From Eubacteriales bacterium (GTDB taxonomy: Bacteria > Bacillota > Clostridia > Oscillospirales > CAG-272), in the NCBI GenBank assembly GCA_045543615.1, contig JAZPXL010000005.1:2640-66639 (forward strand): 64,000 nucleotides of DNA, read 5' to 3'. The notes below the pieces were generated by a model. The model was not told the DNA's origin. It made no database searches and saw only the letters and a program-made list of their open reading frames with translations. This document shows, in pieces, positions 60,074 to 63,975 of the stretch (its first letter is position 1; each line of letters starts with the position of its first letter). A program made the translations under genes and the position numbers.

Positions 60074-60385
60074 TTACAGAGTGATCTGAATATCAACGCC
60101 AGCGGGGAGCTCAATATTCATCAATTCTTCTGTAAGCTTCTTAGAAGGCTTCTTGATGTCAATGAGTCTCTTGTGGTTGCGAAGCTCAAACTGCTCGCGG
60201 CTGTCCTTGTACTTATGGACTGCACGGAGAATGGTAACGATCTCCTTCTCTGTGGGAAGCGGGATGGGTCCGGAAACCTCAGCACCGTTACGCTTAGCAA
60301 CTTCAACAATCTTAGCTGCTGCAGCATCCACGAGGGTGTGGTCGTAGCTCTTCAGTCTGACTCTGAGCTGATCCTTAACTGCCAT
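60074..60385 (-). CDS. rpsJ: 30S ribosomal protein S10
   Basis: [21 protein letters not shown]. Start moved to ATG 60385 (AAGGAGG SD). Confidence 0.96.
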
Positions 60386-60457
60386 TTTGTTTTCCTCCTT
60401 GTTTTTTTCTCGCATACGTGCGAATAAATAAGATGTAGCTTTTCCGTACTATGCGTT

Positions 60458-60740
60458 TAAAAAACAAGGCTTCGTTTCTTTGTGCACCGTTCCGTGCGTT
60501 TCGTCTTGCAGCCATACAAAAGCCGAAACTCGTCATTCGCCGCCGTCACGCAAGCACGGCGCGACACGAATTTCGGAAAGTACGGCAACAAACCGTAAGC
60601 ACGCAGCAGCCTTATGAACCTCGGCTACCTCGGCACTTGATTAGCCCTTCGCCCGATCTTTCGGACTTCTCCGCGAAAATTACCCGCTGTTCCGGCGGCA
60701 ACCTTTCGCTTCAACGCATTCTTCGCACATCAAGCCTTGT
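60458..60740 (-). promoter_or_regulatory. long structured 5' leader of the S10 operon (unclassified RNA element)
   Basis: Lies between a consensus promoter and the rpsJ SD. At least five nested long-range helices are readable by eye (coordinates in findings). The 3' arm of the closing helix is followed by TTTTTT. More GC-rich than the flanks. Confidence 0.5.
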
Positions 60741-60741
60741 A

Positions 60742-60770
60742 ATTATACTACATTTTATCTCATATTGCAA
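60742..60770 (-). promoter_or_regulatory. sigma-A promoter of the S10 operon
   Basis: Minus strand TTGCAA (60770-60765), 17-nt spacer, TATAAT (60747-60742). Confidence 0.7.
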
Positions 60771-60970: not shown

Positions 60971-61528
60971 TTACTCGTCTTCGGGTGGATTGCTACTAAG
61001 AAGCTTGCTTAACGACTCGCAAAGCTTTTCCCTGAGCCACATAGGCTCGATTATCTTTATCTCAGCGTCTGCTGCAAGGAGTGCTCCGAAGAAAATTCTG
61101 ATATTGTGAAATTCACAGAAATACCTATCGCCCTTTCCTATCTTGCGAGTAACAAACGGGCCGAGCTCAAGAGCTACGAGTTTATCGGGAATCTCAAGTA
61201 TTGCCGTATAAGGAATGCTCAACTGCATAGAACCATCATCGCTTGCGCTCGAACGGTCTGCAAGGGCAATGAAGCCTGCGTAGTCCTGCGGGTCTTCAAC
61301 TCTTATGGAATCAGGGAGTGTGAAATCCTCTGTGTAATAATATCCCTTCTTTGTTGGACAAAACGCAATCGGTGCTCCAATCTTACGGCGAAGGTAGTCG
61401 CAGTCTCGCTGAGCCTGTCTGTGAGAAATGCCAAATCTCTCGGACAAACGCATAGCGTTTGGATAATATCCGTCCTTTATTCTTTTGTGCAACCATATAA
61501 TGCGCTCAACAGCAAAATCTGCAGACAT
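60971..61528 (-). CDS. short HTH transcriptional regulator with YafY/WYL-family C-terminal (WCX-like) region
   Basis: N-terminal HTH (NAMRLSERFGISHRQAQRDCDYLR). The C-terminus FFGALLAADAEIKIIEPMWLREKL resembles the end of WYL-type regulators. No clear WYL core at only 185 aa. Confidence 0.5.
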   Translation of the reverse strand: MSADFAVERIIWLHKRIKDGYYPNAMRLSERFGISHRQAQRDCDYLRRKIGAPIAFCPTKKGYYYTEDFTLPDSIRVEDPQDYAGFIALADRSSASDDGSMQLSIPYTAILEIPDKLVALELGPFVTRKIGKGDRYFCEFHNIRIFFGALLAADAEIKIIEPMWLREKLCESLSKLLSSNPPEDE

Positions 61529-62813: not shown

Positions 62814-62842
62814 TTGACAATACGAGTTATATGTGGTATAAT
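62814..62842 (+). promoter_or_regulatory. consensus sigma-A promoter of rplJ-rplL with A/T-rich UP-like region
   Basis: TTGACA (62814-62819), 17-nt spacer with TGG, TATAAT (62837-62842); A/T tracts at 62772-62810. Confidence 0.75.
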
Positions 62843-62848
62843 CTATGC

Positions 62849-63010
62849 CGTTATCCAAAGACAGCAGGTTCCCGTAAAAGCATCAGCCACCCTGCCGAGG
62901 AAGAACTCAAACAAATATTTGGTTTTGTGTCTTTCTCTGCGTGTGCGCCTATGCGACGGGAGAAGGATATTTTTTTACCCCAAAAAGGGTACACGAACAC
63001 AACCAGGAGG
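62849..63010 (+). promoter_or_regulatory. L10-type ribosomal protein leader with attenuator hairpin
   Basis: About 170-nt UTR upstream of rplJ. TCTTTCTC (62930-62937) pairs with GAGAAGGA (62960-62967), followed by TATTTTTTT, as in Firmicute L10 leaders that act by attenuation. Confidence 0.6.
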
Positions 63011-63018
63011 TAAATTTA

Positions 63019-63549
63019 ATGGCCAGCCAAGCTATACTTGAGCAGAAGCAGCAGGTTGTTGCCGAGCTTGCCGACAAGATTCGCAACTCCGTTTCCGGTG
63101 TCGTGGTTAATTACCAGGGCATCACTGTTGAGGACGATACCAAGATGCGTAAGGCTCTGCGTGAAGCAGGTGTTTCTTACCAGGTTATCAAGAATTCCCT
63201 CACAGGTAGAGCGTGCGAAGAGTGCGGCTACGGTGAAATCAAGCAGTATCTGTCCGGTATGACCGCTATCGCAGTCAGCCCCGACGATGCAATCGCTCCC
63301 GCTAAAATTCTCAAGCAGTATGCTGACAAGATTGAGTCCTTCCAGATTCTTGCAGGTTATTGTGACGGTGTTATTCTTGACGCCGCTGCAGTAGAGGTTC
63401 TTGCAACAATTCCCTCGAAGGAAACTCTCATCGCTCAGTTGCTCGCTTGCATCCAGTCCCCCATTACCAAATTCGCCTATGTTCTTGACCAGGTGGCCAA
63501 GAAGGACGAGCAGCCCGCTGAGGCTGCAGAAGCTCCCGCCGAAGCTTAA
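63019..63549 (+). CDS. rplJ: 50S ribosomal protein L10
   Basis: ILEQKQQVVAELADKIRNS. Start moved to ATG 63019 (AGGAGG SD). Confidence 0.95.
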   Translation: MASQAILEQKQQVVAELADKIRNSVSGVVVNYQGITVEDDTKMRKALREAGVSYQVIKNSLTGRACEECGYGEIKQYLSGMTAIAVSPDDAIAPAKILKQYADKIESFQILAGYCDGVILDAAAVEVLATIPSKETLIAQLLACIQSPITKFAYVLDQVAKKDEQPAEAAEAPAEA

Positions 63550-63594: not shown

Positions 63595-63975
63595 ATGGCA
63601 AACGAAAAGATTACAGCTATTCTTGAAGAAATCAAAGCATTGACAGTTATCGAGCTTTCTGAGCTCGTTCACGCTTGTGAGGAAGAGTTCGGCGTTTCCG
63701 CTGCTAACGTTTCCGCAGGTGCTGCTGCAGGCGCTGCTGCTCCCGCTGCTGCTGTTGAAGAGAAGACCGAGTTCGACGTAATTCTTGCTAGCTTCGGTGC
63801 TAACAAGCTCGCAGTTATCAAGGCTGTTCGTGAGATCACAGGTCTCGGACTTAAGGAAGCTAAGGAACTCGTTGAGGGTGCTCCTAAGGCTCTTAAGGAA
63901 GGCGTTTCCAAGGAAGAGGCAGAGTCCATCAAGACCACTCTTACCGAGGCTGGCGCAACTGTAGAAATCAAGTAA
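63595..63975 (+). CDS. rplL: 50S ribosomal protein L7/L12
   Basis: Alanine-rich hinge; C-terminal [40 protein letters not shown]. Confidence 0.97.

Follow-up and report, generated by a model that had tools for sequence, protein, structure and literature searches.

The S10 operon's leader in the 64-kb stretch of Eubacteriales DNA analysed here (the window) is, as judged from its sequence, an RNA of a known class and not a new one. It is a modular member of the S10-Clostridia ribosomal protein leader family, Rfam RF03136, and not one 280-nt nested domain, and as such it would probably provide feedback control of the operon by attenuation through an operon-encoded protein. The 5' 74 nt of the leader (60649..60722, minus strand) match the Rfam model over its full length (model positions 1-81 of 81) and score 45.5 bits, the gathering score being 35.1 (E = 5e-6, calculated over all 64 kb of the window). 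This match lies on the same (minus) strand as rpsJ, 264 nt 5' of its ATG and with a promoter just upstream, and no other ribosomal-protein leader family in Rfam matched the region, even at E values of up to 10. An earlier note on this DNA had read it as a ribosomal-protein leader, structured and transcribed ahead of rpsJ, which was right in kind; its view that the leader was undescribed and could be placed in no known RNA family was wrong, since the Rfam scan that it had itself asked for returned a known family above the gathering score, which refutes it on its own terms. The consequence for annotation is routine, in that the locus is to be labelled RF03136, S10 leader.

The gene behind the leader, rpsJ, is the first of the S10 operon and encodes ribosomal protein S10 (60074..60385, minus strand; 103 aa; Pfam PF00338, E = 3e-35), the next gene being rplC (59957-59328; Pfam PF00297). 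The rpsJ ATG at 60385 agrees with the start in 80 homologues, and the Shine-Dalgarno (SD) sequence AAGGAGG (60394..60400, minus strand) is invariant among congeners. Transcription is predicted to start near 60735 on the minus strand, from a sigma-70-type promoter, TTGCAA-17-TATAAT (60742..60770, minus strand; promoter scan score 10/12), which follows the upstream gene's own terminator-like hairpin (60894-60865); the promoter scan found no second promoter near rpsJ. The earlier note had already placed this promoter at 60770-60742, and its position proved to be kept: five congeners carry TTGAAA or TTGCAA-17-TATAAT at the same place, and a distance of 14 nt from the end of the -10 box to the conserved 5' box of the RF03136 motif recurs in several further relatives. 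Since congeners differ by 1- and 2-nt indels within the leader, we take it to be non-coding, and coding potential was rejected for both strands. The leader folds somewhat better than shuffled sequences (z = -2.49, with 2/100 shuffles) and contains five uninterrupted complementary stretches of at least 9 bp; dinucleotide shuffles average 1.36 +/- 1.17, and five are reached in 2/200 of them.

Eckert & Weinberg 2020 (PMC7247131) treat RF03136 as extending to Clostridia the S10 leader that Yao et al. 2007 (PMC1913097) had reported for Firmicutes. In the literature it stands as a candidate ribosomal-protein leader, and we found no published experiments on how this widespread S10 leader of Firmicutes or Clostridia works. 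Within the window leader, all three helices of the motif, P1 (60709-60703 with 60679-60673), P2 (60698-60695 with 60687-60684) and P3 (60666-60661 with 60656-60651), all on the minus strand, are present in both the minimum free energy (MFE) and the centroid structure. The local hairpin GTCCGA..TCGGGC picked out in the earlier note is real and corresponds to the second hairpin of the family.

Of the rpsJ loci scanned, 18 of the first 20 reach the gathering score of RF03136. A further model (R1), made from RF03136 matches in relatives and giving the window motif 69.6 bits, found the motif in 78 of 81 sources. Across these 78 homologues, 97.7% of the cells in the motif helices are paired, and compensatory changes occur at 12/21 pairs, values that none of 500 shuffles reached; one such change, in P2, separates the window from the relative L001. 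The closest genomes, a mixture of metagenome-assembled genomes and isolates, belong to the Eubacteriales, Oscillospiraceae, Acutalibacteraceae and Faecalibacterium, so that the Clostridia lineage of the family also fits. The window thus shares with RF03136 its position in the rpsJ 5' UTR, its Eubacteriales/Oscillospirales lineage, and P1/P2 and a second hairpin with covariation. It differs in that its clade has a 9-nt tandem duplication, GUGCGAAGA / AUGCGUUGA (60711..60728, minus strand), of the 5' box of the motif, which is unpaired and conserved, together with a 2-nt deletion in GGAGUAUGUCC that gives GGAGAAGUCC. This duplication is specific to the genus-level clade of the window, other relatives having a single UGAUAUGCGAUGA box. 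Another candidate ribosomal-protein leader in the rpsJ 5' UTR of a Clostridial family is the motif RLC-47-1, reported from three genera only of the Peptostreptococcaceae (PMC11109978); it comes from a different family, and we set it beside the window leader by description only.

For comparison of the whole leader we used a set of 76, comprising the window and 75 related rpsJ leaders in which the model search found the motif. These have a common layout of promoter, RF03136 motif, variable hairpins, a hairpin with a U-tract, a 17-nt spacer and a conserved box that we call M2. The motif follows directly on a good promoter in many loci, and the distance from its end to the start codon ranges from 89 to 443 nt (median 186). 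In the MFE structure of the window leader, the variable part consists of two hairpins, GGUAGCC..GGCUGCU (60629-60605, minus strand) and ACGG..CCGU (60596-60582, minus strand), the second of which had been correctly recognised as a local hairpin. Outside the genus, sequence alignment of this region (60582..60629) was not possible. In the sister clade the first hairpin is kept with another sequence, GUGGCCUU..GAGGUUGC; a tandem GCCGAGGT-A-GCCGAGGT at 60634-60618, also remarked on previously, is present in the window and is not conserved in that clade. A metagenome search for close relatives yielded four loci only, all of the L001 clade, so that covariation at the genus level rests on two lineages.

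Next downstream is a strong terminator-like hairpin (60523..60576, minus strand) with the basal stem CCGAAAUUCGU / ACGAGUUUCGG, which is predicted to fold with -28.8 kcal/mol and a pair probability of 0.99 for the basal stem, and for which comparison with L001 reveals a compensatory change, U-A to C-G. Its top is the hairpin TCGC-GCCGT..ACGGC-G-GCGA of the earlier note. One nucleotide after it (C60522) follows the U-tract UUUUGUAU (60514..60521, minus strand), with 6 U in 9 nt, and by its sequence and predicted fold the combination has the appearance of an intrinsic terminator. A hairpin adjoining a U-tract was found at the same aligned place in 71/76 leaders, with medians of -12.6 kcal/mol and 6 U in 9 nt. 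Hairpins of -8 kcal/mol or better occur in 69% of the real sequences against 20% of shuffles. The fixed position holds 5 U or more per 9 nt in 67/76 leaders, a content that 9.5% of the 9-mers from other parts of these leaders attain. The stems vary in sequence and length between species while the hairpin persists, and in a published annotated alignment the homologous hairpins are called terminators by RNIE. The leader thus does contain an attenuator-like element, as had been suspected, which consists of the hairpin at 60576-60523 and the U-tract at 60521-60514, and not of a helix closing 280 nt and the run TTTTTT at 60464-60459. Since the U-tract of the window is interrupted (UUUUGUAU) and set off from the basal stem by a C, termination there could be weak. 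Furthermore, about five relatives have the hairpin without a clean U-tract, and in L007, L008 and L016 an A-rich run follows it, implying that attenuation is not universal. Compared with intrinsic 5'-UTR attenuators in general, the element shares a G+C-rich stem-loop adjoining a U-tract at a conserved position between promoter and start codon; it is unlike ordinary ones in its interrupted U-tract, in that no competing antiterminator was found and in the strictly spaced box after the terminator.

No conserved antiterminator was detected in the leaders. The mean energy of duplexes between the 5' arm of the terminator and upstream sequence is -10.2 kcal/mol, against -10.4 kcal/mol for shuffled arms, and the upstream partner of this arm is not consistent among leaders. 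The 3' arm of P3 (YCGGG) can form about 5 bp with the 5' arm of the terminator (CCCGR), a pairing for which there is no usable covariation because both arms are conserved. Given that no conserved antiterminator was found, the most economical model is one of protein-assisted termination, which does not require an antiterminator. Transcription from the promoter at 60770-60742 would first yield the RF03136 motif (60722-60649), a putative binding site for an operon-encoded ribosomal protein, and then the two lineage-variable hairpins, the strong hairpin with its U-tract, the M2 box and the rpsJ SD. A protein in excess over rRNA would increase termination at the hairpin and U-tract and so place the whole S10 operon under feedback control, by assisted pausing or termination at a constitutive attenuator and not by a switch between two structures, as L4 acts with NusA in Escherichia coli.

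There, L4 regulates the S10 operon together with NusA through both attenuation and translational repression (Zengel & Lindahl, in PMC3616713), and the E. coli L4-type leader is reported to be restricted to Gammaproteobacteria (PMC3616713). The earlier note had called the E. coli leader not known outside that class; an S10-operon leader of another type is nonetheless known there, since the window leader belongs to a Clostridial/Firmicutes family. The E. coli leader is the likely functional analogue: it serves the same operon, has a terminator hairpin within the leader and, like the window leader, needs no alternative antiterminator. It differs in its architecture: in the Clostridial leaders the sensor motif lies 70-150 nt 5' of the terminator and is not part of it. 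No relationship in sequence or structure to the E. coli leader was detected for the window leader, nor was one expected.

The earlier note had proposed a different architecture: an undescribed domain of about 280 nt built from five nested long-range helices (numbered here from the outermost), with the outer 3' arm and TTTTTT (60464-60459) acting as a folding-dependent attenuator. The sequences that it quoted all occur on the minus strand where it placed them, and all 37 of the proposed pairs are standard pairs. Helices 1 and 4 are moreover two of the five complementary stretches of at least 9 bp in which the leader is richer than shuffles, and helix 2 has a pair probability of 0.38. Thermodynamic and comparative evidence nonetheless goes against the nested helices. 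The best fold with all five reaches -102.2 kcal/mol, 21.4 kcal/mol worse than the MFE of -123.6 kcal/mol, and the ensemble pair probabilities of helices 1, 3, 4 and 5 are 0.05, 0.09, 0.00 and 0.00. Among the five congeners, pairing of helix 1 falls to 57%, two pairs are lost from each of helices 4 and 5, and helices 2 and 3 are invariant and therefore uninformative. Helix 4 (60701-60693 with 60545-60537) competes with the covarying hairpin P2. The partners of helix 3 are conserved boxes without covariation, an unchanged C of the motif standing opposite A of the box in 45/76 leaders, and the 5' arm of helix 1 is mostly upstream of the predicted transcription start. As for the T-run at 60464-60459, no stable local hairpin can be read directly before it in the sequence, and it is not conserved, being reduced to four T in congeners. 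The nested-helix model is thus already close to refuted, and we regard it as extremely improbable beside the modular reading.

Downstream of the terminator, all 76 leaders possess the M2 box (GAAACGCACGGAACGGUGC in the window; 60484..60502, minus strand; consensus GAAACRCNCGG-N4-GUGU). The alignment has no gaps in the 55 columns that run from the terminator's 3' arm through the box, and the box begins at a constant distance of 17 nt from the core U-run (60521-60518 in the window). Such rigid spacing suggests a single machine, a protein or else RNA polymerase, that reads U-run and box alike. A sequence profile of M2 gave one match at the expected place per locus, and in the 64-kb window one match only (60523-60485, E = 2.3e-5), the box being specific to this leader. 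In most loci 35-70 nt separate the box from the start codon, and in the window the rpsJ SD lies about 80 nt further on. It lies outside the 81-position RF03136 model, which stops at 60649, and both M2 and the terminator-like hairpin fall in the unaligned 3' flank of the Rfam family; the current model is therefore suggested to cover the first third only of the functional leader. We found no description of M2 in the literature, and it is possibly new, the only item of the leader that is. Attenuation alone leaves this strictly conserved box unexplained. With slightly more doubt than confidence, we propose that M2 is a second functional element, undescribed so far, in the S10 leaders of Clostridia, rigidly spaced from the U-run of the attenuator. 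It may be a second ribosomal-protein operator, or a site that cooperates with the terminator; on read-through transcripts it would act as a second protein site or as a determinant of processing or stability. The resulting map of sensor motif, fixed terminator and rigidly spaced box offers concrete targets for experiment.

Between U-tract and M2, RNAalifold gave no consensus fold and mutual-information scans yielded no convincing pairs; the only possible stem of the box is one of 4 bp, ACRC/GYGU. Mimicry of rRNA, searched for in the 16S and 23S rRNA of E. coli, was not convincing: the best match, GAGACACACGG at 23S positions 940-950, has one mismatch, with about 0.26 such matches expected by chance. 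This 23S segment is presumably one strand of a longer helix.

A further reading is that of a short upstream open reading frame (NTG-x3-E-T-H/P-G-x-V) running across M2, whose translation would control the operon. An NTG is found at a fixed place, -15 from M2, in 40/76 leaders, a stop codon directly follows the Val codon in 22, and the variable positions 2, 8 and 14 of M2 are third codon positions of this frame. However, 36/76 leaders, including the window, lack a start codon in frame, the sequence upstream contains no SD but only the U-tract, and open frames number 46, 54 and 42 of 76, with no excess of this frame over the other two. In addition, only purines occur at position 2, which is what an R-U pair demands, where in an ACN codon any of the four bases would do, and free variation is seen at position 4, a second codon position. 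The evidence from frame, start codons and codon positions largely refutes a leader peptide, which we consider hardly credible.

Since S10 is also NusE, the product of the gene behind the leader might act with NusB in autoregulation, with the U-rich tract or M2 as a boxA-like site on the rpsJ mRNA. The tract GGUUUUUnnAUG, U-rich and followed by A, loosely resembles GYUCUUUAANA, and boxA-like sites within 50 bp of the gene start have been proposed upstream of rpsJ in some Gammaproteobacteria (PMC5725501). The U-tract, however, is about 130 nt from the start codon and adjoins a hairpin as in a terminator, which is how RNIE calls its published homologues. Inspected by eye, the leader does not match the published boxA consensus GYTCTTTAANA. 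We therefore see very little likelihood in a Nus-factor mechanism.

A weightier alternative to attenuation is that control is mainly translational, with a protein on the RF03136 motif, on M2 or on both blocking ribosome entry at rpsJ through an SD-masking fold or entrapment, and with the hairpin and U-tract being constitutive or structural. Most validated ribosomal-protein leaders act on translation, and the proximity of M2 to the start codon in most loci would suit such a mechanism. In the window, the pyrimidine-rich segment CCUUGUUUUUU (60459..60469, minus strand) can form an 11-bp helix with 60407-60397 (AAAAAACAAGG), which overlaps the SD, and the sister clade has at the same place a different anti-SD-like sequence, CUCCU, that pairs with AGGAG. 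Across the family, however, SD masking shows no excess, with a mean pairing probability of 0.59 against 0.56 in shuffles and 38/67 loci above the control, and it was rejected at that level. The SD of the window itself has a pairing probability of 0.52 against 0.42 in shuffles, 12/30 of which are as high, and the RF03136 motif is distant from the SD (90-440 nt). Mainly translational control is thus unlikely, if less so than the other alternatives to attenuation, and at the level of the genus the segment at 60469-60459, by its predicted pairing, is a possible anti-SD candidate. The same segment overlaps the 3' arm of helix 1 of the nested-helix proposal.

The leader that lies upstream of rpsJ almost certainly belongs to the S10-Clostridia/Firmicutes S10 leader family, natural downstream parts included. 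When the whole window was scanned with Rfam 15 at gathering thresholds, two matches were returned, one of them RF03136 ('S10-Clostridia ribosomal protein leader') at 60722-60649 (-), with a score of 45.5 bits (cut-off 35.1) over model positions 1-81 of 81. A known family therefore covers the 5' quarter of a region that the earlier note had considered unassignable to any known RNA family, and a local hairpin noticed there, GTCCGA-AAGA-TCGGGC, is the second hairpin of the RF03136 model. The RF03136 alignment was described as extending the Firmicutes S10 leader (Yao et al. 2007) by further homologues from Clostridia, with structure and conservation fundamentally the same as those of the established motif (Eckert & Weinberg 2020, PMC7247131); according to the supplement of that paper, experiments have yet to establish the ligand, for which every protein of the operon is a candidate.

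At the locus itself, a promoter scan identified a sigma-70-type promoter (TTGCAA-17-TATAAT, 60770-60742 (-)), and a non-coding stretch of ~350 nt separates it from rpsJ (S10; Pfam PF00338, E = 3e-35), which is followed by rplC. The rpsJ start at 60385 (-), giving 103 aa, is common to 80 homologues and is preceded by a Shine-Dalgarno sequence (SD), AAGGAGG, at 60400-60394 (-); an upstream ATG at 60415 in the ORF list, which would extend the protein to 113 aa through 60386-60415 (-), was rejected on these grounds. Coding sequence within the leader was likewise rejected, given indels of 1-2 nt among leaders of the same genus. The S10 promoter is preceded by a strong terminator-like hairpin of the preceding gene (60894-60865), before which a 185-aa ORF (60971-61528 (-)), lacking a Pfam match at E = 1e-3, comes to an end.

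A search with the S10 protein, using one genome per species, yielded 80 rpsJ loci, all within Eubacteriales, Oscillospirales and neighbouring orders; the nearest of them (L001, from a sister clade within the genus) encodes an S10 that is 97% identical. Of the first 20 loci scanned, 18 reached the RF03136 gathering score, and a covariance model built from those 18 matches and run on 81 sources found the motif in 78, the remaining three being loci with truncated upstream DNA. Across the 78-sequence alignment 97.7% of cells were paired and compensatory changes were seen in 12 of 21 pairs, a level reached by none of 500 shuffles. Between the end of the motif and the start codon lie 89 to 443 nt (median 186 nt; 254 nt in the window), and outside the genus BLAST detected conservation at the sequence level in the motif only. 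The window is one of several loci in which 14 nt separate the end of a good -10 box from the conserved 5' box of the motif, placing the motif at the extreme 5' end of the transcript. This conserved, unpaired 5' box is copied in the window by a 9-nt tandem duplication, GUGCGAAGA/AUGCGUUGA (60711-60728 (-)), which is common to five leaders of the same genus and absent from other relatives. In the MFE fold, a 7-bp helix that is not in the Rfam model, GCUUGAU/AUCAAGU (60728-60734 with 60642-60648 (-)), closes the entire motif; it is kept in the sister clade with a U-G wobble, and is a possible extra P0 helix.

By reading 76 spacers (that of the window and those of 75 related leaders), anchored on a recurrent word, we found two conserved modules beyond the Rfam model: a hairpin with a U-rich tract, and a box that we term M2. 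The hairpin is followed directly by the U-rich tract in 71/76 leaders (median -12.6 kcal/mol; median 6 U in 9 nt). Its stems differ wholly in sequence and length between species, most beginning with CCGG. Hairpins of -8 kcal/mol or stronger adjoin the U-tract in 69% of real versus 20% of shuffled sequences, and 67/76 leaders have five or more U in 9 nt at the fixed place, compared with 9.5% of the 9-mers taken from other places in those leaders. In the window, the terminator-like hairpin (-28.8 kcal/mol) spans 60576-60523 (-), with a basal stem CCGAAAUUCGU/ACGAGUUUCGG (pair probability 0.99) that shows a compensatory U-A to C-G change in the sister clade, and is followed, after C60522, by the U-tract UUUUGUAU (60521-60514 (-)). 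What had been read as a competing hairpin, TCGC-GCCGT..ACGGC-G-GCGA, is its upper part. In the annotated alignment that the authors provide for the family, RNIE terminator predictions sit on exactly these hairpins, so the attenuator is already visible in public data; the paper does not discuss it.

M2 (consensus G-A-A-A-C-R-C-N-C-G-G-N4-G-U-G-U; 60502-60484 (-)) is found in 76/76 leaders and starts exactly 17 nt past the core U-run (in the window, 60521-60518). MAFFT aligns all of these leaders gap-free over 55 nt, from the terminator 3' arm through M2. A sequence profile of this segment gave one match per locus at the expected place, including loci outside its building set, and a single match in the 64-kb window (60523-60485, E = 2.3e-5). 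RNAalifold returned no consensus structure for the segment; M2 could form at most a 4-bp stem (A0-U15, C1-G14, R2-U13, C3-G12) around an 8-nt loop with an invariant CGG, and position 2, opposite a U, is only ever a purine, which fits a base-pair requirement. This variation suits an R-U pair better than a codon, and a uORF through M2 was rejected, with an NTG at -15 in only 40/76 leaders, not including the window, and no SD. A boxA/Nus site was also rejected, as inspection of the leader by eye gave no match to the published consensus, and the position near the gene start is unmatched too. Mimicry of rRNA by M1 or M2 was not convincing when judged against E. coli rRNA, the best match (23S 940-950, GAGACACACGG) being one of which ~0.26 are expected by chance; 23S 940-958, GAGACACACGGCGGGUGCU, does resemble M2 (compare GAAACACACGGCGGGGUGUU in the related locus L015), and is only a lead. 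At three loci (L007, L008 and L016), ~25 nt before M2, an A-rich run (e.g. AUUAAAAAAGG) follows the hairpin with no clean U-tract, UUU being retained ahead of the run in L008; since M2 is kept in all three, the box does not require a functional terminator. M2 is specific to the S10 leader and lies outside RF03136. Words from the box turn up 50 or more times in the 3' flanks that the published alignment leaves unaligned, and we found no description of the box in the literature. The rigidly spaced M2 box may be new, as may the conclusion that the leader has three modules, of which the Rfam model covers just the first.

If validated ribosomal-protein leaders are a guide, the 5' motif would serve as the sensor for an operon-encoded protein and the conserved hairpin and U-tract as the attenuator, an attenuation mechanism to which we give an even chance. 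A classical switch, which requires an antiterminator, is not supported: the best duplex that the terminator 5' arm forms with any upstream sequence has a mean of -10.2 kcal/mol versus -10.4 for shuffled arms, with an inconsistent partner. With no antiterminator apparent, the best working parallel is offered by the E. coli S10 leader, in which L4 and NusA enhance termination at the leader terminator (PMC3616713); the two RNAs are unrelated.

Masking of the SD gave no signal at the family level (SD pairing probability 0.59 versus 0.56 for shuffles, 67 leaders), and the window's value is unremarkable (0.52 versus 0.42). The window does contain a possible mask at the genus level, an 11-bp helix between CCUUGUUUUUU (60469-60459) and AAAAAACAAGG (60407-60397), and the sister clade has CUCCU at the place of CCUUGUUUUUU. 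At many related loci (e.g. L019, L054, L066, L069 and L077) a GCCCGCCAA box recurs 10-20 nt ahead of the SD, immediately 5' of AAGGAGGCG, and pairing is possible between its CGCC and GGCG at the SD 3' edge; the window lacks the box, for which an ensemble test detected no excess of SD pairing.

The earlier note had instead proposed a nested domain of ~280 nt, held together by five long-range helices. All its quoted strings sit at the coordinates it gave, and 37/37 of the proposed pairs are standard. Compared with shuffles, the leader has a moderately more stable fold (z = -2.49) and holds five uninterrupted complementary stretches of at least 9 bp, against 1.36 +/- 1.17 in dinucleotide shuffles (2/200 reach five), which together indicate real structure; these stretches comprise helices 1 and 4, a local-hairpin stem, the SD-region pairing and a long-range pairing of 60730 with 60416. 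Yet the best fold containing all five helices reaches -102.2 kcal/mol, compared with an MFE of -123.6 for a fold that holds the Rfam helices and the terminator hairpin in their place, and ensemble pair probabilities for helices 1-5 are 0.05, 0.38, 0.09, 0.00 and 0.00. A metagenome search added four same-genus leaders, all on the L001 side; in the resulting six-sequence alignment helix 1 is 57% paired (the sister clade has lost 5/9 of its pairs), two pairs are missing from each of helices 4 and 5, and helices 2 and 3 are invariant and so carry no information. Helix 4 would take the 5' strand of the motif helix P2, which changes compensatorily from CCGC/GCGG to CCGU/ACGG while the proposed distal partner stays fixed. 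Helix 3 joins two family-wide boxes, UGCGWU in the motif and AACRC in M2, that do not covary, a motif C facing an M2 A in 45/76 leaders. Most of the 5' arm of helix 1 (60740-60732) precedes the predicted start near 60735, a caveat already raised. Directly ahead of the T-run at 60464-60459, suggested as part of an attenuator, no stable hairpin could be seen by eye, and leaders of the same genus have CUAACUUUUC; the tandem GCCGAGGT repeat is not conserved. The idea of a long structured rpsJ leader with an attenuator-like feature stands in spirit, without the unassignable RNA or the nested domain.

Between M2 and the SD lies an A/U-rich block, GCUACAUCUUAUUUAUUCGCACG (60415-60439 (-)), kept within the window's genus and recognisable at L002 and L004 as GCUACAU-AUAUUAUAUAUGCGC; it was not promoter-like in the promoter scan, and could be a candidate processing or ribosome-loading site. 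Elsewhere in the window, an RF00557 L10 leader (62837-62984 (+); 46.2 bits, gathering score 44) precedes rplJ/rplL (ORFs 62941-63549 and 63595-63975), which are divergent from the S10 operon, an arrangement shared with L001 and L002.
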